From assembly GCA_040005235.1 (NCBI GenBank), contig JBDTZG010000017.1, positions 33,624 through 97,623 on the forward strand: a stretch of DNA of 64,000 nucleotides. Direction: 5' to 3'. The stretch's first letter is position 1. Every line of letters starts with the position of its first letter. Positions 50,357 to 64,000 of the stretch are shown here, in pieces. A model generated the notes under the pieces. The model made no database searches. It was not told the DNA's origin and saw only the letters and a list, made by a program, of their open reading frames with translations. The stretch comes from Acidobacteriota bacterium. Its GTDB lineage: Bacteria > Acidobacteriota > Thermoanaerobaculia > Multivoradales > UBA5704. A program made the translations under genes and the position numbers.

Positions 50357-51009
50357 CCGAGCTCGAATCGCTCTACAAACACCGCTTCGCCGACGCCGAC
50401 CGCGCGCGGAAGGATCAACTCTGGGCGGTCCTCTGCCGCAGGTTCCTCCAACCGAGGGTCGGCGAAGGAAAAACCGTCTTGGATCTGGCCTGCGGCTTGG
50501 GCGAGTTCTCACGCCACGTCCGCGCGGCGAAGAAGTACGCGCTCGATCTAAACCCTGGCGCCGCGGCGCACCTACCGCCCGAGGTCGAATTCCACGCCGG
50601 CTACGCCGACCAGCTGAATTTCCTCCCTGACGGCAGCGTCGACACGGTCTTTACCAGCAACTTCCTCGAGCATCTGCCGGACAAGGAGGCCGTCGATCGC
50701 GTCCTCGCCGAGATCCACCGCGTGCTGCGCCCCGGCGGCCGGTTCCTTGCGATCCAGCCCAACGTCCGCTTCGCTTACGCCGAGTATTGGGACTTCTGGG
50801 ATCACTACACCGCACTCTCCGACCGCTCGGCCAACGAAGCGCTACTCCTCGCCGGATTTACGATCGACGAGATGATCCCCCGCTTCCTGCCCTTCACCAC
50901 CAAGACCGCGCTGCCCACCCATCCCGCCCTGCTCGATCTCTATCTAAGACTCCCGTTCGCCTGGCCGCTGTTCGGCAAACAATTCTTCGTCGCGGCGCGG
51001 AAGGGCTAA
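50353..51009 (+). CDS. Class I SAM-dependent methyltransferase
   Basis: VLDLACGLGEF, SNFLEHL and LRPGG motifs. Confidence 0.88.
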   Translation: MTELESLYKHRFADADRARKDQLWAVLCRRFLQPRVGEGKTVLDLACGLGEFSRHVRAAKKYALDLNPGAAAHLPPEVEFHAGYADQLNFLPDGSVDTVFTSNFLEHLPDKEAVDRVLAEIHRVLRPGGRFLAIQPNVRFAYAEYWDFWDHYTALSDRSANEALLLAGFTIDEMIPRFLPFTTKTALPTHPALLDLYLRLPFAWPLFGKQFFVAARKG

Positions 51010-51041
51010 AGGCAGGAGATCGAGCTCGGCTCCCCAAGTTC

Positions 51042-51100
51042 GCCCTCACCCCCTCGGTCCCCCTCTCCATCCGCACTCCCGCCCAACCGGGAGAGGGGGA
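51042..51100. repeat. REP-like intergenic palindrome (CCCTCACCCCC...CCCTCTCC / GGGAGAGGGG)
   Basis: CCCCTCTCC pairs with GGAGAGGGG and resembles the CCCTCACCC REP class. Confidence 0.45.
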
Positions 51101-51170
51101 AGAACAACATTTCGGTTGGGGCGCCCTTCGGTCCGGGTTATCCTCCCCTCACTTTTTCGAGGAGTACCCC

Positions 51171-52295
51171 ATGCAGCGTTCCGCCGCCCACCGGTTCGTT
51201 TTCACGCTCGCGCTCGTTGGACTTGCCGCCGCTTCGGCAGGTTGCCGCTCGGCCCGCTTCGCCTGCCCGACCGTCGGGGCGCCTCCGCAGGTCGCCGCGA
51301 CTTCCGATTGCCCGCCGCTGCGTGAGTATCCGTGGAAGAACCTGGTGTTCGAAGGGGGCGGCATCAAGGGGCTCGCCTACGGCGGCGCGCTGGAGGTGCT
51401 CTCCGATCAGAAGATCCTCCCCCAGATCGAGAGCGTAGCGGGCACGTCCGCGGGGTCGATCACCGCGATGCTCGTCGCCCTGCGCTATTCGGCGGGCGAC
51501 ATCCGCGAGTTGCTCTTCAAGCTCGATTTCAGTCAGCTCCAGGACGGCGGCTCGACCGGCATTTTCCGGCTGTTCCGGCGCTACGGCTACTATCGCGGCG
51601 ATGCCTATCTCGACCTGATGCGCTGCCTGGTGGAAGGCAAAACCGGCCAAAAGCGCGCGACGTTTCGCACCCTGCACGACCACGGTTTTCTCGACCTGCG
51701 GGTCTTCGCGAGCGACTTGAACGTCGGCAACGTGCGCGAGCTGTCGTACCGGAAGAGCCCCGATTTCGAGGTCGCGCTCGCGGTGCGGATGTCCGGTTCG
51801 TTCCCGCTCTTCTTCGCCTCGATCGAGAGCGAAAAGAAGATCTTCGTCGATGGCGGCGTGGTCCTGAACTATCCCGTGAACGCGTTCGACAGCGAACGAG
51901 GCCTGAATCCCGAAACCCTCGGCTTCGTGCTCGTCAATACCAGCACGCCGCCCCCGGTGAGGAAGATCGACGACCTCCTAACCTACGGCAAGGGGCTGTT
52001 CGAAACGCTCCTCTCCGCCCAAGTGGTCGGACTGGAGCACAACCCGGCAAACCTCGAACGGACGGCGATCCTGAACGACCTCGGAATCTCGACCCTAGAC
52101 TTCAACCTTACGCCCAAGCAGAAGAAAGACCTGATCGACCAGGGCGCCGAATGCACCTGTCTCTACCTGCGCGACTGGGCGACCTGGACCGACGCCGGGC
52201 GGCACCCGGGTCACGAAGTCCTTCTCGGCGCGGCACCCGGCACGGCGGTTGTGCCGATCCGCGAGACAGGCCACTGCGGCTCGGCGTTCCCGTAA
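51171..52295 (+). CDS. Patatin-like phospholipase, predicted lipoprotein
   Basis: FEGGGIKG, GTSAG and DGG motifs. SD GAGGAG and signal ending ASAGC. Confidence 0.88.
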   Translation: MQRSAAHRFVFTLALVGLAAASAGCRSARFACPTVGAPPQVAATSDCPPLREYPWKNLVFEGGGIKGLAYGGALEVLSDQKILPQIESVAGTSAGSITAMLVALRYSAGDIRELLFKLDFSQLQDGGSTGIFRLFRRYGYYRGDAYLDLMRCLVEGKTGQKRATFRTLHDHGFLDLRVFASDLNVGNVRELSYRKSPDFEVALAVRMSGSFPLFFASIESEKKIFVDGGVVLNYPVNAFDSERGLNPETLGFVLVNTSTPPPVRKIDDLLTYGKGLFETLLSAQVVGLEHNPANLERTAILNDLGISTLDFNLTPKQKKDLIDQGAECTCLYLRDWATWTDAGRHPGHEVLLGAAPGTAVVPIRETGHCGSAFP

Positions 52296-52307: not shown

Positions 52308-52354
52308 CCCCTTCGGGTGTGCTCGTCCTGGGACCGCCGCCGTCTCGGCGGCGT
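52308..52354 (+). repeat. REP-like element, left copy of an inverted pair
   Basis: About 45 bp, nearly identical to the reverse complement of 58314-58359. Confidence 0.8.
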
Positions 52355-52382: not shown

Positions 52383-52580
52383 CAGGGGCGGGACGTAGTG
52401 GCATGGCGCGGGGATCGGCGCTTCGTCTTCCAATGCAAGCGCGTCCAAGACTTCTCGGCCGCGACGGGAAAGGCGGAGATCCAGAAGCTCCGAAGCCTGC
52501 CGGGCGCGGAGCAGCCGCACGTTTGGTGTTCGTGGTGACGCGGACGGTCACGGCGGAGATAAAGACGATCCTTTGCCGCC
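52383..52580 (+). pseudogene. Fragment of an Mrr-like PD-(D/E)xK restriction endonuclease domain
   Basis: QGRDVVAWRGDRRFVFQCKRVQ (D...QxK). No credible start; a frameshift near 52522 continues as LVFVVTRTV. Confidence 0.55.
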
Positions 52581-52621
52581 AGGGCCGGCAGCATACCCTC
52601 ATTTCTGCGAAGATGCGCAGT

Positions 52622-52933
52622 ATGGAACCGCTAACAGCTGGACTCATCGCGCTCGGCCTTCTAGCTCTCGTAGCCCTCGCCTACCTGGCAGTCTTTCGCA
52701 AGAAAGCCGCGATGACGATTAAAGGCCCGGGTGACATGGGACTTTCGTTCGACGGCACCAACGAGGCTGAAAGGGCAGCAGCCGGGCAGGTCACGATTGA
52801 GCGTGCGCGCGCTAAGGGCTCGATTGAAGCCGCGAACCGAACGGGCGGCGGCGCCCGCATCGCCGATGTCGAAGCGGATCAAGACATCCGCGCGACGAGC
52901 GAACCCTGCCCAAAAGCTGGTCCCCCGGCGTAG
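52622..52933 (+). CDS. Small TM protein with beta-solenoid-like pseudo-repeats, copy 1 (0-frame product)
   Basis: MEPLTAGLIALGLLALVALAYLAVFRKK TM helix. Highly similar paralog at 55535. Alternative start at 52613. Confidence 0.82.
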   Translation: MEPLTAGLIALGLLALVALAYLAVFRKKAAMTIKGPGDMGLSFDGTNEAERAAAGQVTIERARAKGSIEAANRTGGGARIADVEADQDIRATSEPCPKAGPPA

Positions 52934-52965
52934 GTTCGGGGGTCCCGACGGCGCTCCATGCCGCG
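52909..52965 (+). other. Predicted -1 programmed ribosomal frameshift signal, copy 1
   Basis: C_CCA_AAA (52909-52915) in the small-ORF frame, a 6-nt spacer, then stem CCCCCG/CGGGGG (52922-52942). The -1 frame is open into the NB-ARC ORF. Confidence 0.72.
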
Positions 52966-55482
52966 ATTCAGGGTGCAAACGTGGGGCGCGACGCGATTTC
53001 GGTCGCGATCGGAGAGGTACACGTCCACCCATTGCCCGAGTCCCTGCCGGATAATCCGGCGCCGATCCTAGGTTTTCCCTATCCCTCCCTCGGGCCGGGG
53101 TTCTATGGGCGAGAGGAGGTTCTCCTCCACCTCCGTGAGCTTCTGGTCGCGGCGACCGCGGGGCGGACGACCGCCATTGCCTGGAAGGCAGTTCATGGGC
53201 TTGGGGGTGTGGGCAAGACCCGGCTCGCCGTCGAGTATGCCTCGCGCTTCGCAGCGGAGTACTCGGTGCGCCTGTTTGTGGGCGCCGGTTCGGAGACCAA
53301 CCTACGGCGGAACCTTGCCGGAATGGCCAAAGGGCTTGGGCTGCCGGAAAGTGCAGCTCTGGAAGAGGAGGCTCGTGCGACAGCGGTCGTTTGTTGGCTG
53401 AGCCTAAACCCGGGCTGGCTACTAGTTCTCGACAGCGTGGATGACGACACGGCGTTGCAAGCAGTCCTTGCGCTGGTGGGGAGTCTGCAAGGGGGACACG
53501 TGCTCCTGACCGGTCGCCTCGATCGCTGGGGTGCGGGTATCTGGCCGGTCGAACTCGATCTGCTAACAAGAGAGGCGGCGGTCGCGTTGCTGCTTGGGCG
53601 AACGGAGGGAAGGCGACGCGCCACGAAGGTGGACCCTGGAGATGCCCAGGAGATCGCCCGCGAGCTGGGGAATCTGCCGCTCGCGCTCGAACAGGCCGGC
53701 GCGTATGTGGCCGAGAACCGGTTGACGCTTGCAAAGTACCGGGCGGAGTGGGAGTCGCAGCGCGAGGCGGTGCTCTCCTGGTTCGATCCGATCGCCAGCC
53801 ATTATCCCGCGAGCGTTGCGGTCACCTGGCAAACCTCCGTCGACCGTCTTTCACCCGCCGCCCGCCGCCTTCTGGGCCGCCTCGCCTGGCTCGGGTCGGA
53901 GCCGATTCCGGAATCACTGCTGGATGTCGAGGTACCAGACGGCGGGGAGCCAAAAGACGGTCCGGCGCCAGGCGCCGCTCTCGTAGAATCTGCGCGGTAC
54001 TCGCTCGCGACACGTTCGGCTACTGCTCCGATGTTTACCGTCCATAGGTTAGTTCAAGACGTGACCCGCCGCGGGCCGGGAGGGGAGGGGGCGTTGCGGG
54101 AAGCCCTCGGTTGGGTGAATGAGGCGTTCGTCGGCGATCCAGACGACGTTCGCACCTGGCCGGTTCTCGAACCGCTCACCCCCCACGCTCGGGCCGTCGC
54201 GCGATTCGCGGACAAATCAGGAGTTACCCATCCGACGACGCGGCTCATGAATCAAATTGGGATGTTGCTTCTGGCGAAGGCTCTCCCCGCGGAGGCGGAG
54301 CCGCTGATGCGCCGCGCCCTCGAAATCGACGAGGCCAGCTTCGGAGCCGATCATCCCATCGTCTCGATCCGCCTCAACAACCTGGCCCAACTGCTCCAAA
54401 CCACGAACCGTCTGGGGGAGGCGGAGCCGCTGATGCGCCGCGCCCTCGAAATCGACGAGGCCTGCTCCGGGGACGAGCATTCCAATGTCGCGGTCCGCCT
54501 CAACAACCTGGCCCAGCTGCTCCAGGCCACGAATCGCCTGGTGGAGGCGGAGCCGCTAATGCGCCGCGCCCTCGAAATCGACGAAGCCAGCTTTGGAACA
54601 GAACACCCCAACGTCGCGATCCGCCTCAACAACCTGGCTACACTGCTCCAAGCTACAAACCGTCTGGTAGAGGTGGAGCCGTTGATGCGCCGCGCCCTCG
54701 AAATCGACGAAGCCAGCTTCGGAGCGGAACATCCCAACGTCGCGATCCGCCTAAACAACCTGGCCCAGCTGCTCCAGGCCACAAATCGCTTGGTGGAGGC
54801 GGAGCCACTGATGCGCCGCGCCCTTGCGATCGACGAGGCTAGCTTCGGAGCGGAACATCCCAACGTCGCAATCCTCCTCAATAATCTGGCGAACCTGCTT
54901 CAGAACACGAACCGCTTGGCAGAAGCCGAACCCCTGATGCACCGCGCCCTCGCGATCGATGAGACCAGTTTCGGAGCTACACATCCGGATGTAGCGATCG
55001 ACCTCAACAACCTGGCCCAGCTGCTCCAAGCCACGAATCGCCTGCCGGAGGCGGAGCCGCTGATGCGTCGCGCCCTTGCGATCGACGAAGCCAGCTTCGG
55101 AGACGATCACCCCAACGTCGCGATTCGCCTCAGCAACCTGGCCCAGCTGTTCCAGGCCACGAATCGCCTGGCGGAGGCGGAGCCGCTGATGCGCCGCGCC
55201 CTTGCGATCGACGAGACCAGCTTCGGTGCCGATCATCCGGAGGTCGCGCGCGACCTCAATAACTTGGCCCTGCTGCTCCAGGACACAAACTGCCTTCCAG
55301 ACGCAGAGCCCCTGATACTTCGGGCGCTGACGATCGTCTTCGAGTTCCGGCGCCGCACCGGGTTTGCTCACCCCGACGAGGAGCTTTATCTCGAAAACGC
55401 CCGCGCTCTCCTCGCCATGGCGGGTCGATCCGAGACAGAGATCGAAGAAGCGGTCGCGGCGGCTTCTCCCGGGGCCAAGTAG
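52909..55482 (+). CDS. NB-ARC + TPR (NLR-like STAND) protein, copy 1; probably reached by -1 frameshift (first in-frame GTG at 52981)
   Basis: HGLGGVGKT, WLLVLDSVDD, GNLPLALEQAGAY and VHRLVQD motifs, followed by 42-aa TPR repeats. Confidence 0.88.
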   Translation, partial: PKSWSPGVGSGVPTALHAAIQGANVGRDAISVAIGEVHVHPLPESLPDNPAPILGFPYPSLGPGFYGREEVLLHLRELLVAATAGRTTAIAWKAVHGLGGVGKTRLAVEYASRFAAEYSVRLFVGAGSETNLRRNLAGMAKGLGLPESAALEEEARATAVVCWLSLNPGWLLVLDSVDDDTALQAVLALVGSLQGGHVLLTGRLDRWGAGIWPVELDLLTREAAVALLLGRTEGRRRATKVDPGDAQEIARELGNLPLALEQAGAYVAENRLTLAKYRAEWESQREAVLSWFDPIASHYPASVAVTWQTSVDRLSPAARRLLGRLAWLGSEPIPESLLDVEVPDGGEPKDGPAPGAALVESARYSLATRSATAPMFTVHRLVQDVTRRGPGGEGALREALGWVNEAFVGDPDDVRTWPVLEPLTPHARAVARFADKSGVTHPTTRLMNQIGMLLLAKALPAEAEPLMRRALEIDEASFGADHPIVSIRLNNLAQLLQTTNRLGEAEPLMRRALEIDEACSGDEHSNVAVRLNNLAQLLQATNRLVEAEPLMRRALEIDEASFGTEHPNVAIRLNNLATLLQATNRLVEVEPLMRRALEIDEASFGAEHPNVAIRLNNLAQLLQATNRLVEAEPLMRRALAIDEASFGAEHPNVAILLNNLANLLQNTNRLAEAEPLMHRALAIDETSFGATHPDVAIDLNNLAQLLQATNRLPEAEPLMRRALAIDEASFGDDHPNVAIRLSNLAQLFQATNRLAEAEPLMRRALAIDETSFGADHPEVARDLNNLALLLQDTNCLPDAEPLILRALTIVFEFRRRTGFAHPDEELYLENARALLAMAGRSETEIEEAVAAASPGAK
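54289..55330 (+). repeat. 126-bp tandem repeats encoding 42-aa TPRs (9 AEPL-type helices)
   Basis: Recurring GAGGCGGAGCCGCTGATGCGCCGCGCCCTC every 126 bp. Confidence 0.92.
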
Positions 55483-55534
55483 TTTGACTCCGGGGAGGCG
55501 GCGCAACCTCCTCATTTCTGCGAAAATGCGCGGC

Positions 55535-55846
55535 ATGGAACCACAGACAGCTGGACTCGTTGCCCTCGGCGTTCTAGCGCTCGTGGCCCTCGCCTACCTC
55601 GCCGTCTTTCGCAAGAAAGCCAAGGTGACGATTAAAGGCCCGGGTGACATGGGGCTTTCGTTCGAGGGCACCAACGAAACGGAGAGGGCCGCCGCCGGGC
55701 TTGTCACGATTGAGCGTGCCCGTGCCAGGGGCTCGATTGAAGCCACGAACCGAACGGGCGGCGACGCCCGCATTGCCGACGCCGAAGCGGATCAAGATAT
55801 CCGCGCGACGAGCGAACCCAGCCCAAAAGCTGGCCCCCCGGCGTAG
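55535..55846 (+). CDS. Small TM protein with beta-solenoid-like pseudo-repeats, copy 2
   Basis: MEPQTAGLVALGVLALVALAYLAVFRKK...SEPSPKAGPPA, a paralog of 52622..52933. Confidence 0.82.
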   Translation: MEPQTAGLVALGVLALVALAYLAVFRKKAKVTIKGPGDMGLSFEGTNETERAAAGLVTIERARARGSIEATNRTGGDARIADAEADQDIRATSEPSPKAGPPA

Positions 55847-55878
55847 GTTCGGGGGCTCCGGTGGCGATCAGCGCCACA
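55822..55878 (+). other. Predicted -1 programmed ribosomal frameshift signal, copy 2
   Basis: C_CCA_AAA (55822-55828), a 6-nt spacer, stem CCCCCG/CGGGGG (55835-55855) and a second hairpin GTGGCG/CGCCAC. Confidence 0.72.
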
Positions 55879-58143
55879 ATCCAAGGCTCGACCGCGGGGG
55901 GACAGATCTTCGCGGCGGGCGTCGTGAACATCCTTCCGCCGGCCGCGCCTCCGGGGGAGAAGCCACCGCGCCCGATCCTGGGCTTCCCCTATCCCTCTCT
56001 CGGCCCGGGGTTCTACGGGCGAGAGGAGGTTCTCCTTCATCTCCGCGAGCTGCTGGTTGCGGCGACCATGGGCCGCGCAACCGCCATTGCGGGAAAGGCG
56101 GTCCATGGGCTTGGGGGGGTAGGCAAGACCAGGCTCGCCGTCGAGTACGCCTCGCGTTTCGCGGCGGATTACTCGGTGCGCCTGTTTGTGGAAGCCGGTT
56201 CGGAGGCCGACCTGCGGCGGAACTTCGCCGGATTAGCTGAAGGGCTTGGGCTGCCGGAGAGTGCAGCCGCGGGAGAGGAGGTCCGCGCGGGAGCGGTCGC
56301 TCGCTGGCTGAGCCTGAACCCGGGCTGGCTCCTGGTGCTCGACAATGTGGACGACGACGCGGCGTTGAAATCCGTCCTCGCGCTATTGGCGAGCCTCCAG
56401 GGGGGACATGTGCTCCTGACCGGTCGCCTCGATCGCCTGGGTGCGGGAATCGAGCCGGTCGAACTTGATCTGTTAACCGAGGGGGCTGCGGTCGCGTTTC
56501 TCCTCGGTCGGACAGGAAGGAGGCGGCGCGCCACGGAGGCGGACCCAGGGGACGCCCAGGAAATCGCCCGCGAGCTGGGGTATCTGCCGCTCGCGCTCGA
56601 ACAGGCGGGCGCCTATGTGGCCGAGAACCGGTTGACGCTCGCGGCGTATAGGAAAAAGTGGGAGTCGCAGCGTGAGGCCGTGCTTTTCTGGTTTGATCCC
56701 GTGGCCAGCAACTACCCCGTGAGCGTCGCAGTCACCTGGCAAACCTCCGTCGATCGTCTTTCCTCCTCCGCACACCGTCTTCTCGATCTCCTAGCTTGGC
56801 TCGGACCAGAGCCGATTCCGGAGTCGTTGTTGGACGTGAAGGTGCCGGAAACAGAACTGCCGGAGGGCGATCAAGCGGCAAGGTCCGCACTCGCGGAGCT
56901 TGCACGGTATTCGCTCGTCACCCGCTTGGCAACTACTCCAATGTTTACCGTCCATCGGTTAATCCAGGACATGACTCGCCGCGGGCCGGAAAGGGAGGGG
57001 GTGTTGCGGAAGGCGCTAGGTTGGGTAGATGCAGCATTCGTGGGCGAAACGCAAGATGTACGTTCGTGGCCGGACCTCGAACCGCTCACTCCCCACGCTC
57101 GGGCCGTGGTGCGGTTCGCGGACGAGGCTCGGATCGCCGAGCCGACGGCGCGGCTGATGAGCCACCTTGGTAGCTTGCTGAGCGTGAAAGCTCTCCACAA
57201 GGACGCGGAATCGCTGATGCGCCGCGCTCTTGCCCTCGACGAGGCCCGCTTCGGGGCGGATCATTCCGATGTTGCGCGTGACCTCAACAACCTGGCCCAA
57301 CTGCTCCAGGACACAAACCGCATGGTGGAGGCGGAGCCGCTGATGCGTCGCGCCCTCGCCATCGACGAGGCCAGATTCGGAGCCGATCATCCACGGGTCG
57401 CAATCCACTTTAATAACCTGGCCCTTCTGCTCAAGGCCACGAACCGCGTGGCAGAGGCGGAGCCGCTGATGCGTCGCGCCCTCGCCCTCAACGAGGCCAG
57501 ATTCGGAGTCGATCATCCCAACGTCGCGACTGACCTCAGCAACCTGGCTCAACTGCTCGAGGCCACGAACCGCCTTGCAGAGGCGGAGCCGCTGATGCGC
57601 CGCGCCCTCGCGATCGACGAGGCGAGGTTCGAAGTTGATCATCCAAGGGTCGCGATCCGCCTCAATAACCTGGCCGGTCTGCTCCAGGCCACTGGCCGTC
57701 TGTGGGAAGCGGAGCCGCTAATGCGCCGCGCCCTGGCCATAGATGAGGCCAGATTCGAAGCCGATCATCCTAACGTCGCGATCCGCCTCAACAATCTAGG
57801 CCAGCTGCTCCAAGCCACGGACCGCTTGGCGGAAGCGGAGCCGCTGATGCGCCGCGCCCTCGCGATTGCTGAGGCGAGATTCGGAGGCGACCATCCTAAC
57901 GTCGCGATCCACCTCAACAACCTGGCCGGCCTGCTCCAGGTCGCGAACCGCCCGGCGGAGGCGGAGCCGCTGATGCGCCGTCACGTGGCGATATTTCTCA
58001 CTTTCGCCCGCACCACGGGTCACCAGCATCCATATTTTCCAGCGGCCTTGAGCAACTATGCTGCCCTTCTTACCGAAATGGGCCAATCCCCGAGCGAAAT
58101 CGAAACAAGGATCGCCACTGTTAGAGCGCAGGGCGCGTCTTGA
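55822..58143 (+). CDS. NB-ARC + TPR (NLR-like STAND) protein, copy 2; probably reached by -1 frameshift (first in-frame GTG at 55861)
   Basis: HGLGGVGKT, WLLVLDNVDD, GYLPLALEQAGAY and VHRLIQD motifs, followed by TPR repeats. Confidence 0.88.
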   Translation, partial: PKSWPPGVGSGAPVAISATIQGSTAGGQIFAAGVVNILPPAAPPGEKPPRPILGFPYPSLGPGFYGREEVLLHLRELLVAATMGRATAIAGKAVHGLGGVGKTRLAVEYASRFAADYSVRLFVEAGSEADLRRNFAGLAEGLGLPESAAAGEEVRAGAVARWLSLNPGWLLVLDNVDDDAALKSVLALLASLQGGHVLLTGRLDRLGAGIEPVELDLLTEGAAVAFLLGRTGRRRRATEADPGDAQEIARELGYLPLALEQAGAYVAENRLTLAAYRKKWESQREAVLFWFDPVASNYPVSVAVTWQTSVDRLSSSAHRLLDLLAWLGPEPIPESLLDVKVPETELPEGDQAARSALAELARYSLVTRLATTPMFTVHRLIQDMTRRGPEREGVLRKALGWVDAAFVGETQDVRSWPDLEPLTPHARAVVRFADEARIAEPTARLMSHLGSLLSVKALHKDAESLMRRALALDEARFGADHSDVARDLNNLAQLLQDTNRMVEAEPLMRRALAIDEARFGADHPRVAIHFNNLALLLKATNRVAEAEPLMRRALALNEARFGVDHPNVATDLSNLAQLLEATNRLAEAEPLMRRALAIDEARFEVDHPRVAIRLNNLAGLLQATGRLWEAEPLMRRALAIDEARFEADHPNVAIRLNNLGQLLQATDRLAEAEPLMRRALAIAEARFGGDHPNVAIHLNNLAGLLQVANRPAEAEPLMRRHVAIFLTFARTTGHQHPYFPAALSNYAALLTEMGQSPSEIETRIATVRAQGAS
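57200..57985 (+). repeat. 126-bp tandem repeats encoding 42-aa TPRs (7 AEPL-type helices)
   Basis: Same repeat unit as 54289-55330, with fewer copies. Confidence 0.9.
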
Positions 58144-59337: not shown

Positions 59338-62241
<2,904 letters not shown>

Positions 62242-62495
62242 GGCGGGCGGACTTCTCCAGAGATTTAAAATCGAATCGAAGGGGTTCGTCTCGCGAATCT
62301 TAACGCTCGCGGCAAGATTCGCATCCGCTTGCCCCACATTTCGCCCTTCGCAGCACTCTTCCCTTCTGGAAGGGCATGGCGACGCTCCAATCGGGAGGCG
62401 TTCGCCGTGATACTTTGACCCGCCTGTCGCACCGGGAAGAAGATTCCAGGCGAGCTGGAACGAGCCCCCCGGGCGGAAAAACGAGGATTCCCCCC

Positions 62496-64000
62496 ATGGA
62501 CGACCAGACCCCCGCAGAGCCGCAGGAAACCGAACGGACCGAGGCCCCCCCCGAACCCCAAGAATCCAGCGAGATTCTCCCTTCGGCCGAGCCCCAGGAG
62601 CCCGTAGCGGACCCGGCTCCCGAGCCGACGGAGAACGCCGCCGAGACGCTCGACGTAGAGAGCGCGAAAGAGACTGAGGCAGCGCCGGCGGCGGAAGAGC
62701 CCGCGGCAGCACCTGCGGCGGAAGAGCCCGCGGCAGCGCCGACGGCGGAAGAGCCCGCGGCAGCACCTACGGCGGAAGCGCCAGCGGCGGAAGAGCCCGC
62801 GGAAGCGCCGCAGGAATTCGGCGCCATCCTGGCCCAGTTCGAGCAGGCGACCGCGACCGAAAAGAAGAACGACCCGCAAGTCGGCGGCAAGGTCAGCGGA
62901 ACCGTGATCTCGATCGGCGAAGACACCACCCTGGTCGACATCGGCACCAAATCCGAAGCGGTCATCCCTACCGCCGACCTACGCGACAAGGAAGGCAACG
63001 TCACCGTCGAGGTCGGCGCGAAGCTCGAAGCGACGGTCGCAGGCCGCGATCCGGAGACCAACGCACTGCTGCTCAAGCGCAAGATCTCGAAGAACGCGGC
63101 CCAGGCCGAAGCTGCCGGAGAGATCCGGCGCGCCTTCGAGACCCAGATGACGCTCGACGGGCGGATCACCGGCTTGAACAAGGGCGGTCTCGAAGTCGAC
63201 GTCGCGGGCGTGCGCTGCTTCTGCCCGATCTCGCAGATCGAGAACCGCTTCGTCGAGGACGCGAGCGGCTACGTCGGTCAGACCCTGACCTTCCGGGTGC
63301 TCCGCTTCGAGGAGCCGACCGGCAGCAACCGCCGGCCGAACATTGTGCTGTCGCGCCGCTCGTTGCTCCAGGAAGAAGCCGACGTGCGCGCCGCCGAAGT
63401 GCGGGCCACCCTGTCGATCGGCACCGTGATCACCGGCCACGTCACTTCGCTCACGACCTACGGCGCGTTCGTCGACCTCGGCGGCGTCGAAGGGCTGCTC
63501 CACGTCTCGGAGATCGGCCATTCGCGGCTCGCACGCCCCGAAGACGCGCTCGCGGTCGGCCAAGAGGTGGAGGTGCAAATCATCCGCATCGAGCGCGCCG
63601 CGGACGACAAGCGCGGCGAACGGATCTCGCTGTCGAGGAAAGCGCTGGAGCGCGATCCCTGGCGCGACGCCCTGGGCCGTTTCCCCGAGCGTTCGATCGT
63701 CCATGGCAAGGTCGTCCGGCTGGAGACCTTTGGCGCGTTCGTCGAGTTGGAGCCGGGGCTCGACGGCCTGCTCCACATCAGCGAGATCGGCAACAGCTCG
63801 GGCCGCCGTCTGCAGCACGCACGCGAGGCGCTGTCGGTCGGCCAGGAGCTGTCGGTGCGCGTGCTCGGCGTCGACACCGCCCGCCACCGCATCTCGTTGG
63901 GATTGGGCGACGGCAGCGAAGATCACCACGACGACGATCTGCCGGAACCGCCGCGCGCGGCACCCGCCGGCACGTTCGGCAGCCTGGGCGACTTCTTTAA
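62496..64000 (+). CDS. Ribosomal protein S1-like protein (4 S1 domains), running off the window end; absent from the ORF track
   Basis: Manual translation from ATG 62496 gives VDIGTKSEAVI, NKGGLEVDVAGVRCFCPISQI, YGAFVDLGGVEGLLHVSEI and FGAFVELEPGLDGLLHISEI, ending FGSLGDFF. Confidence 0.88.
   Translation, partial: MDDQTPAEPQETERTEAPPEPQESSEILPSAEPQEPVADPAPEPTENAAETLDVESAKETEAAPAAEEPAAAPAAEEPAAAPTAEEPAAAPTAEAPAAEEPAEAPQEFGAILAQFEQATATEKKNDPQVGGKVSGTVISIGEDTTLVDIGTKSEAVIPTADLRDKEGNVTVEVGAKLEATVAGRDPETNALLLKRKISKNAAQAEAAGEIRRAFETQMTLDGRITGLNKGGLEVDVAGVRCFCPISQIENRFVEDASGYVGQTLTFRVLRFEEPTGSNRRPNIVLSRRSLLQEEADVRAAEVRATLSIGTVITGHVTSLTTYGAFVDLGGVEGLLHVSEIGHSRLARPEDALAVGQEVEVQIIRIERAADDKRGERISLSRKALERDPWRDALGRFPERSIVHGKVVRLETFGAFVELEPGLDGLLHISEIGNSSGRRLQHAREALSVGQELSVRVLGVDTARHRISLGLGDGSEDHHDDDLPEPPRAAPAGTFGSLGDFF
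62678..62810 (+). repeat. 27-bp coding tandem repeat (AAP(A/T)AEEPA)
   Basis: Units start at about 62678, 62705, 62732 and 62759, plus a partial unit. Confidence 0.88.

Follow-up and report, generated by a model that had tools for sequence, protein, structure and literature searches.

The G/GT genes of phages and the OrfAB genes of insertion sequences each give a short and a long product with a common N-terminus, and the ratio of the two products is set by the efficiency of a -1 ribosomal frameshift. The chromosomal genes copA, with its product CopA(Z), and csoS2 also give two isoforms by programmed -1 ribosomal frameshifting, the frameshift truncating the protein in these cases. To our knowledge, few bacterial -1 frameshift genes outside phages and insertion sequences have been proven. 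Here, we analyse two tandem modules in a stretch of 64,000 nucleotides (the window) of contig JBDTZG010000017.1 from the acidobacterial assembly GCA_040005235.1 (contig C5 of a 6.22-Mb genome in 140 contigs with 65.9% G+C). Each module consists of a small open reading frame (ORF), encoding a protein with a transmembrane (TM) helix, and a long frame for an NLR-like STAND NTPase with NB-ARC and TPR domains. The junction of the two frames resembles those of IS3/IS911 OrfA-OrfAB, dnaX gamma/tau, and phage G/GT in having an in-phase X_XXY_YYZ heptamer, a 6-nt spacer, a stable stem-loop, and a nearby zero-frame stop. Biologically, the modules are closest to the Bell/BASS-NLR gene pair, in which, as here, a small upstream gene is collinear with, and overlaps or abuts, an NB-ARC/TPR gene. 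We consider it very probable (roughly 0.85) that the junction is a real programmed -1 ribosomal frameshift site giving a short TM/beta protein and a TM-NLR fusion.

The junction of the two frames and its conservation

The two copies comprise the following features.
52622-52933, plus strand: small ORF of copy 1 in the zero frame, from ATG 52622 to TAG 52931-52933; 103 amino acids; the start position is common to the homologues
52613, plus strand: second in-frame ATG of copy 1, 9 nt upstream of ATG 52622
52909-52915, plus strand: heptamer CCCAAAA of copy 1, in phase as C_CCA_AAA with the zero-frame codons CCA (52910-52912) and AAA (52913-52915)
52916-52921, plus strand: spacer of copy 1, 6 nt
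52922-52942, plus strand: hairpin of copy 1 with the arms CCCCCG (52922-52927) and CGGGGG (52937-52942); the loop holds TAG 52931-52933
52915-55482, plus strand: -1-frame part of the predicted long product of copy 1, resuming at AGC 52915-52917 after Pro-Lys of the heptamer; 855 more codons after Pro-Lys and the stop at 55480-55482, hence a predicted fusion of about 953 amino acids
about 53182-53730 and about 54373-55341, plus strand: NB-ARC and TPR domains, respectively, in the -1 frame of copy 1 (Pfam)
55535-55846, plus strand: small ORF of copy 2 in the zero frame, from ATG 55535 to TAG 55844-55846; 103 amino acids; 87% identity to copy 1
55822-55828, plus strand: heptamer C_CCA_AAA of copy 2, in phase
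55835-55855, plus strand: hairpin of copy 2 with the arms CCCCCG (55835-55840) and CGGGGG (55850-55855); the loop holds TAG 55844-55846
55828-58143, plus strand: -1-frame part of the predicted long product of copy 2; 771 codons after Pro-Lys, predicted fusion of about 869 amino acids
about 56098-56628 and about 57283-58092, plus strand: NB-ARC and TPR domains, respectively, in the -1 frame of copy 2 (Pfam)

A preliminary description of this stretch had placed an in-phase heptamer at the end of each small ORF, followed after a 6-nt spacer by a CCCCCG/CGGGGG stem, and these details and their coordinates proved correct in both copies. Heptamers were judged by rules taken from the accessible parts of PMC4066793 and PMC5009743. 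The same description had the -1 frame running without a stop into an NB-ARC/TPR protein, which also holds: the open -1 frame spans 52828-55482 in copy 1 and 55741-58143 in copy 2, and its reading from the heptamer is PKSWSPGVGSGVPTAL... and PKSWPPGVGSGAPVAI..., respectively. In the two long frames, Pfam finds NB-ARC with 27.0 and 27.5 bits (cut-off 23.5), TPR_12 with E-values of 1.4e-71 and 1.4e-67, and TPR_10 with E-values of 3.1e-68 and 6.6e-48, and the Walker A motif GLGGVGKT is present in both translations. The small protein matches no Pfam family above the cut-off. As had been stated as well, the NLR frames share no start codon. The first ATG, GTG, or TTG of the -1 frame is GTG 52981 in copy 1 and GTG 55861 in copy 2, and these face GCG and ACG in the alignment. 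Between heptamer and stem, the two copies differ in a single base (GGT/GGC), which is synonymous in the zero frame.

Two further paralogs, c3 and c4, were found on contigs C9 and C18 in a six-frame search with the small ORF as query (60% and 56% protein identity). Both end in ...Pro-Lys-Val/Ala-stop and have the -1 continuation PKSLTPGAP..., which leads into an NB-ARC protein. The DNA of all four copies reads CCCAAAAG, five bases, CCCCCGG, a loop, and CGGGGG, with the stop falling within the spacer and the stem gaining an extra inner helix in c3 and c4. CCCAAAA occurs 480 times in the genome (both strands, 6.22 Mb) but is accompanied by CCCC 13 nt downstream in only eight cases, four of which are the four small-ORF/NLR junctions. 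A chance origin of the heptamer-stem pairing at the junctions is excluded.

Homologues were collected at the protein level with a profile of the four small ORFs, a search that is not biased toward the frameshift signal. The profile matches 13 of the 92 genomes of the family (the window's own counted) and four of its 11 genera, and gives 13 places outside the window's genome. Eight of these (L006, L007, L008, L009, L010, L011, L013, and L014) have an intact C-terminus of the small ORF. All eight contain the in-phase heptamer and, after a spacer of 6 nt, the hairpin; their zero frame stops at +10 or +22 nt, and their -1 frame is open and encodes the NB-ARC P-loop. The ninth family locus, L015, has an intact CCCAAAA cassette and an additional frame break within the small ORF, and a tenth, L019, is cut by a contig end. 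L015 is the same locus as L126 (about 1000-1400 of the reverse complement); its TM part is in the NLR frame and its beta part in another frame, which points to either decay of this copy or a faulty assembly. The remaining three places, L012 (1422-3171), L016 (1422-3132), and L017 (1395-3078), belong to three genomes of the same genus and have the TM helix joined in frame straight to TPR arrays. They are without the beta region, the cassette, and NB-ARC, keep the upstream AAKMRGM/AKIGGM reading, and look like deletion derivatives. Beyond the family, L023 from another family of the phylum combines the heptamer and the 6-nt spacer with a different stem (CCCC-AAA-CTCC ... GGAG-GC-GGGG), and L152 from a metagenome has the heptamer and a CCCCC...GGGGG stem. 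All 14 protein-found loci that cover the relevant region thus have the heptamer in phase and 6 nt ahead of a G+C hairpin, and their NLR lies in the -1 frame. Random relative frames and a conserved independent NLR start were two patterns that the preliminary description held to be incompatible with frameshifting. The former were not found among these 14 loci, nor was the latter among the 24 loci compared.

The module is sporadic, given the few further carriers in the samples of class and phylum. Two of 401 genomes match in the phylum sample including the window's own, where absence is weak evidence with 12 candidates scored per genome. Scored in the same way, three of 401 genomes match in the class sample, the two others being already known, and one of 401 in the sample of the phylum of a Chloroflexia carrier, namely that carrier itself. 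A word-index protein search returned one protein. The contigs of two Logan runs match 52550-54318 without difference, but these runs are possibly the source sample and hence not independent. The stretch 55218-56000 at copy 2 is not covered by contigs of the two runs.

In addition, DNA was scanned for the cassette pattern in one genome per species, a search that is biased by construction toward the pattern. It gave at least 118 matches in at least 116 stretches. Among the matches listed, 13 have a zero-frame ORF that is 60 codons or longer and terminates within 10 codons, together with 150 or more open codons in the -1 frame, five more have the same architecture truncated by locus ends, and 100 of 118 are unrelated, mostly terminator-like hairpins 3' of A-runs. 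The true matches listed come from Acidobacteriota (Thermoanaerobaculia, Terriglobia, and others), Chloroflexota (Chloroflexia, Anaerolineales, and Anaerolineaceae), and Planctomycetota (Tepidisphaeraceae), and several of their contigs are identical to ones from the family protein search. The -1 frame of L072 codes for another type of P-loop NTPase, and therefore the cassette travels with the N-terminal module. The scan also returned CCCAAAAGGCGCGCCCCCGGCC-loop-GGCCGGGGG, which recurs nearly identically in L032, L033, L045, L047, L060, L105, L117, and L122. These are Desulfovibrio genomes and one other record, in which there is no associated -1 ORF architecture, and the element is probably a repeated terminator or a repetitive extragenic palindromic (REP)-like hairpin unrelated to the NLR cassette.

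In all 24 unique loci, the spacer has 6 nt and the heptamer C_CCA_AAA is in phase. The local hairpins have folding energies of -11.4 to -19.7 kcal/mol; that of copy 1 has -13.2 kcal/mol, and 7.8% of the windows in its own gene fold equally well. The structures vary in a G-U versus a G-C at the seventh pair, in their inner helices, and in the different stem of L023. No relevant Rfam family matches the cassette.

The proteins carry a trace of the heptamer as well. A hidden Markov model search of 1.84 billion cluster representatives (clusters at 50% identity) assigned 478 clusters to the small-ORF family at E<=1e-3 and 234 at E<=1e-10, and the termini were analysed in the best 150 of the 478, comprising 134 proteins of up to 150 amino acids and 16 longer ones. 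In 115 of the 134 short members, Pro-Lys plus 0-8 residues forms the C-terminus, most often as Pro-Lys+1 (n=67) or Pro-Lys+5 (n=29, typically x-Pro-Pro-Ala). The residue preceding Pro-Lys is D, P, G, S, H, N, A, R, T, F, L, I, C, or V, and in none of the 115 is it K, E, Q, M, or W, which alone have no codon with C in the third position. Such a gap is expected if C_CCA_AAA is required, since the preceding codon must then end in C, whereas a requirement at the protein level predicts no such gap. Directly after Pro-Lys, A, D, V, G, or E is found in 88 of the 115, which implies a G as the eighth base. Lys-Lys plus 0-8 residues ends eight of the 19 other short members (P0026, P0050, P0051, P0089, P0090, P0101, P0128, and P0146), and judging by these termini they may use an A_AAA_AAR heptamer. 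A DNA search for P0090 gave no locus, and L152, a relative of P0026, is of the Pro-Lys type at the DNA level.

In the window's genome, CCA accounts for 3.7% of the Pro codons and AAA for 26% of the Lys codons (a crude count over 260 long ORFs), and tRNA-Lys(UUU) and tRNA-Lys(CUU) are both encoded. In work on dnaX, a second tRNA-Lys reportedly lowers the slipperiness of A_AAG. By analogy, the two tRNA-Lys species may explain the choice of A_AAA. According to the accessible part of PMC4066793, C_CC.A_AA.G is the best heptamer measured in Escherichia coli (54% with the IS3 pseudoknot), and C_CC.A_AA.A is among the motifs that shift by more than 0.10% without a stimulator.

Among the 16 longer matches are natural proteins in which the TM/beta module is fused in frame to other C-terminal domains. 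About ten representatives (P0022, P0040, P0043, P0053, P0058, P0073, P0082, P0092, P0116, and P0130) form a family of about 290 amino acids, whose C-domain of about 160 residues is confidently predicted to be all-helical and has no Pfam match; the predicted fold of a 295-residue in-frame relative is uninformative over residues 26-121, where the predicted local distance difference test score (pLDDT) is below 50. In P0095 (866 amino acids), the module is in frame on an HD-CE-like plus HATPase_c_3 protein, and P0097 and P0112 are additional in-frame fusions. The in-frame fusions lack Pro-Lys at the linker and also lack the Pro-Gly...Gly-Gly linker, and they keep an A-G-G-(N/D)-I-T-I-Q or A-G-R-D-I motif after the linker. 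In the -1 frame of the NLR loci, this AGG(N/D)I/AGRDI motif is encoded 19-24 codons downstream of the heptamer. Therefore, the parts encoded before and after the shift site make up a single N-terminal module, in which Pro-Lys is required only if a change of frame has to occur. The absence of the stem-encoded linker from the in-frame relatives argues that the constraint acts on the RNA. These fusions suggest that conflict systems use the TM/beta module as a portable N-terminal part.

The NLR frame has no start codon at a common position. In the 24 unique loci, the first ATG, GTG, or TTG of the -1 frame lies +9 to +258 nt from the heptamer, and its position is never conserved. In 12 of the 24 loci, it falls after the beginning of the AGRD-like motif. 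In c3, L129, L065, L102, and L152, it appears at +198 to +258, either beyond the conserved HQLPxPPxDFTGR motif or, as in L102 and L152, at a Met inside the P-loop. An upstream in-frame TTG (-351) exists in c3 only.

Weighing the explanations of the junction

The frameshift interpretation of the preliminary description is thus supported by the conserved phase, spacer, hairpin, and -1 frame and by the missing conserved start of the NLR. Comparison of the sequences establishes the signal, its phase, the frame relation, the absence of a start at a conserved position, and a module that continues across the shift site. Several observations weigh against this interpretation. The trans-frame fusion is a predicted product, and its support is comparative and predictive. 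Of the 24 aligned cassettes, 22 contain the searched pattern, and nine of these 22 (L126 and eight others) were found by the pattern alone and are therefore not independent evidence for it. Concerning the hairpin, 0-19% of the 34-nt windows in the next 1.2 kb of the respective G+C-rich gene are equally stable (0-15% for the 14 protein-found loci), and folds of 67-75 nt are not more stable than dinucleotide shuffles (z -0.62 to +0.12). The outer stem (C5G/CG5) is almost invariant with nearly no compensatory covariation, and part of its conservation could reflect the encoded Pro-Gly...Gly-Gly linker. There is a lone in-frame NB-ARC fusion, P0124, with the junction ...RPKSLNPGG...; because its C-terminus looks out of frame it is given little weight, and it may stem from an error-prone contig. 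The Lys-Lys variants are known at the protein level alone. The accessible part of PMC4066793 has C_CCA_AAA far weaker than C_CCA_AAG in Escherichia coli. Finally, a canonical start lies within 51 nt of the heptamer in eight of the 24 loci, and GTG 55861 of copy 2 lies only 5 nt beyond GGGGG.

These nearby starts also speak for an arrangement of two cistrons with translational coupling, in which the hairpin masks a G-run resembling a Shine-Dalgarno sequence, terminating ribosomes open the hairpin, and initiation takes place at a nearby, possibly non-canonical start. The published Bell/NLR pairs are collinear, with overlapping ORFs in 42% of the pairs, and are read by their authors as polycistronic expression (Dyrka et al. 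2020, bioRxiv 10.1101/2020.01.06.895854, accessible part). Coupling would also suit the weak local similarity between the C-terminus of the small ORF and the peptide after the hairpin (22 C-termini against 22 post-shift N-termini, hhalign E 0.018 over 11 columns, probability 2.6%). However, the start position is not conserved, the codon after the G-run being ACG, GCG, TCG, or GCC depending on the locus, and in L102, L152, L065, L129, and L020 the first canonical start is only found at +198 to +258. Coupling would leave the in-phase heptamer of rare codons, the missing K/E/Q/M/W in 115 proteins, and the loss of Pro-Lys from the in-frame relatives unexplained, and we consider it improbable. A hairpin masking a Shine-Dalgarno sequence was rejected because there is no conserved start. 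Recoding might also happen by slippage of RNA polymerase in the A4 or C5-6 runs, or the length of the C-run might change heritably as in phase variation. One extra C in the C5/C6 run would indeed join the small ORF and the NLR frame, and the lone GGT/GGC difference between the copies is synonymous in the zero frame. Nevertheless, the runs are short, and the tracts known from slippage and phase variation are longer than A4/C5-6. A spacer fixed at 6 nt and a phase-dependent constraint on the base that precedes CCA are features of ribosomal shifting, the C-run is only C4 in L023 and only C5, with A behind it, in L152, and the two differences between c3 and c4 just past the heptamer (AGT CTG versus AGC TTG) are synonymous in the -1 frame. 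The contigs of the two Logan runs contain no length variant, though contigs drop rare variants. The chance that polymerase slippage or phase variation explains the junction therefore appears very small to us.

An assembly indel or a pseudogenised fusion gene, which would mean that there is no two-product design at all, could be suspected from the homopolymer runs at the junction, the extra frame break of L015, and the ends of P0124 and P0001, which look out of frame. We find this hardly credible, because the frame relation is identical in the four paralogs and in many independent assemblies, both short-read and long-read judging by the contig names, 115 of the 134 short representatives stop 0-8 residues past Pro-Lys, and both flanking frames are open and conserved. 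A homopolymer error, namely one missing C, was rejected on the same grounds.

Small protein, proposed mechanism, and gene neighbourhood

The small protein was modelled with AlphaFold2 from 119 aligned homologues (mean pLDDT 73.4). In the model, residues 3-25 confidently form a TM helix, basic residues come next, the part at about 30-50 is disordered, and four short strands lie within residues 57-93. Foldseek found nothing at E<=0.001 for the model in the PDB, and a search of the ESM Atlas gave unnamed clusters only. Four copies of residues 48-103 obtained a predicted self-association score of 0.71, while the best of three controls obtained 0.01. For comparison, 20 of 30 proteins with structures solved as pairs of one chain and one of 23 solved as single chains attained the mark, counts that hold only roughly for the custom alignment and four copies used here. 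The runs agreed in at least 92% of the contacts, and the partner pLDDT was at least 76. The predicted contacts are between residues 75-95 of one copy and residues 54-74 of the next, and in the model such a head-to-tail geometry would allow open-ended stacking.

If the two frames are joined by -1 frameshifting, as we prefer, each module would be one recoded gene. Ribosomes would initiate at the ATG of the small ORF and translate the 98-residue segment of TM helix and beta-strands before meeting C_CCA_AAA, 6 nt before the G+C-rich hairpin. Most would hold the frame and stop five codons on (one codon on in other family members), and this in-frame termination would release a membrane-anchored protein of about 100 amino acids. 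A fraction would slip by -1 (from CCA-AAA to CCC-AAA), enter the NB-ARC/TPR frame, and yield a TM-anchored NLR-like STAND protein that shares its N-terminus with the short form. From this we reasonably infer the ratio of short to long form, the setting of the stoichiometry by the shift, and a role in defence or cell death. As a tentative proposal, for which we rate the odds as somewhat below even, the short form is more abundant, its beta region stacks head-to-tail, and the long form, once activated and oligomerised, acts as a seed on which the short form assembles at the membrane in a response of the abortive-infection or cell-death type. Ligand sensing by a small number of TM-NLR fusions would lead to their oligomerisation, and the oligomers would seed the assembly of many short copies. 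The proposal is based on the NB-ARC/TPR sensor, the in-frame occurrence of the module on conflict-type domains, the patatin-like neighbour, and the tandem copies with differing TPR arrays. Alternatively, the short form may act as decoy or inhibitor.

A more far-reaching version, which we think rather unlikely, is a self-templating immune module in which one gene provides both sensor and executioner in a ratio fixed by the frameshift efficiency. The TM/beta domain, resembling a beta-solenoid, would stack, and ligand-oligomerised TM-NLRs would nucleate an open-ended polymerisation of the short form in the membrane, which would kill the cell. If this were true, it would be a bacterial counterpart of the prion-like amplification of ASC/CARD or NWD2/HET-S without a separate adaptor gene, and changes in shift efficiency, for example by translation stress during infection, would retune the system. 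The design principle would be one polymerising domain common to sensor and effector in a hard-wired ratio. A recoded family of this kind would be large and phylum-spanning (478 clusters at 50% identity) and, as far as our literature search shows, would contain the first NLR-like immune receptor built by recoding. For annotation it would mean that "hypothetical proteins" of about 100 amino acids and NB-ARC ORFs without a start are one gene with two products. The invariant heptamer-hairpin cassette would be directly portable into reporters.

Two other features lie upstream of copy 1.
50787-52295, plus strand: patatin-like phospholipase gene directly upstream of copy 1 (Pfam Patatin, E 1.6e-31)
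52335-52353, plus strand: terminator-like hairpin with T-run, 3' of the patatin-like gene (consensus scan only)

The terminator-like site likely marks the start of a separate transcription unit, and a sigma-70 scan gave no promoter-like site. Patatin-like lipases are frequent defence effectors, and the patatin-like gene and the NLR modules may form a small defence island. Upstream of both small ORFs, there is a 5' element, CTCATTTCTGCGAA-R-ATGCGC, at 52597-52624 and 55510-55537, which includes the second in-frame ATG 9 nt upstream of the start (52613 and 55526). The paralogs c3 and c4 are preceded by similar TTTCTG-GAAAAT/GATAAT sequences. An obvious Shine-Dalgarno sequence was not seen in the window's genus, and homologues of other genera have AAAGGAG. 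The conserved element could be the -10 element of a promoter or represent a short-leader arrangement. The TPR array at 54290-55217 consists of near-identical 42-residue units, at which the Logan contigs fragment into pieces of 31-511 nt. Counted from the first GTG, the long frame has 833 codons for amino acids in copy 1 and 760 in copy 2, and these differing lengths and the near-identical units fit a repeat-number variation in the sensor. Further downstream, a large secreted-type protein with PD40, PA, Peptidase_M28, and PDZ domains is encoded on the minus strand (59338-62766), and a gene similar to that of ribosomal protein S1, truncated by the end of the window, on the plus strand (62376-63998). 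Both look like ordinary neighbours.

Comparison with known systems

The Bell/BASS-NLR pairs share with the modules not only the gene order. The small protein is a presumed membrane-acting executioner in both, and a short motif is possibly common to its C-terminus and the N-terminus of the NLR. This motif has about 25 amino acids in the Bell/BASS pairs, and the similarity seen in the modules is weak. A related system, Bab/Agp, is described in the accessible part of bioRxiv 10.1101/2024.11.07.622273. The small protein studied here is predicted by AlphaFold2 to consist of one TM helix and four strands and resembles no PDB entry at the threshold given above, in contrast to the Bell domain, which is helical. 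The Bell domain was not recognised among the Pfam matches of the small protein, of which there are none, in a Pfam copy whose inclusion of a Bell model is unconfirmed. In addition, unlike in the Bell/BASS pairs, the NLR is without a start of its own and is apparently made as a fusion. With an effector at the N-terminus, a STAND NTPase in the centre, and a repeat sensor at the C-terminus, these putative defence modules have the general layout of Avs and bNACHT proteins. TM effectors are listed among the N-termini of Avs in the accessible part of PMC13581612. The PADLOC models gave no family for the small ORF and the two long frames.

A literature search gave no report of frameshifting in bacterial NLR/STAND genes. 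The accessible text of the frameshift surveys PMC3711429, PMC5009743, and bioRxiv 10.1101/2025.10.02.679949 contains no NB-ARC/TPR case; the supplementary tables of these surveys and of PMC4066793 could list the family. Like copA and csoS2, the modules are chromosomal non-mobile genes with a short and a long isoform predicted from one mRNA. The direction is different, since the frameshift would here extend the small ORF into a receptor by about 850 residues. In contrast to IS3, dnaX, and G/GT, which encode a transposase, a polymerase subunit, and a tail chaperone, respectively, the gene is one for an NLR-like STAND NTPase, C_CCA_AAA takes the place of the commonest heptamer A_AAA_AAG, and the C5G/CG5 stem is nearly invariant across phyla. 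The mechanism would thus be the already known -1 frameshifting of the IS3/dnaX/G-GT type, and its use for a bacterial NLR appears to be new.

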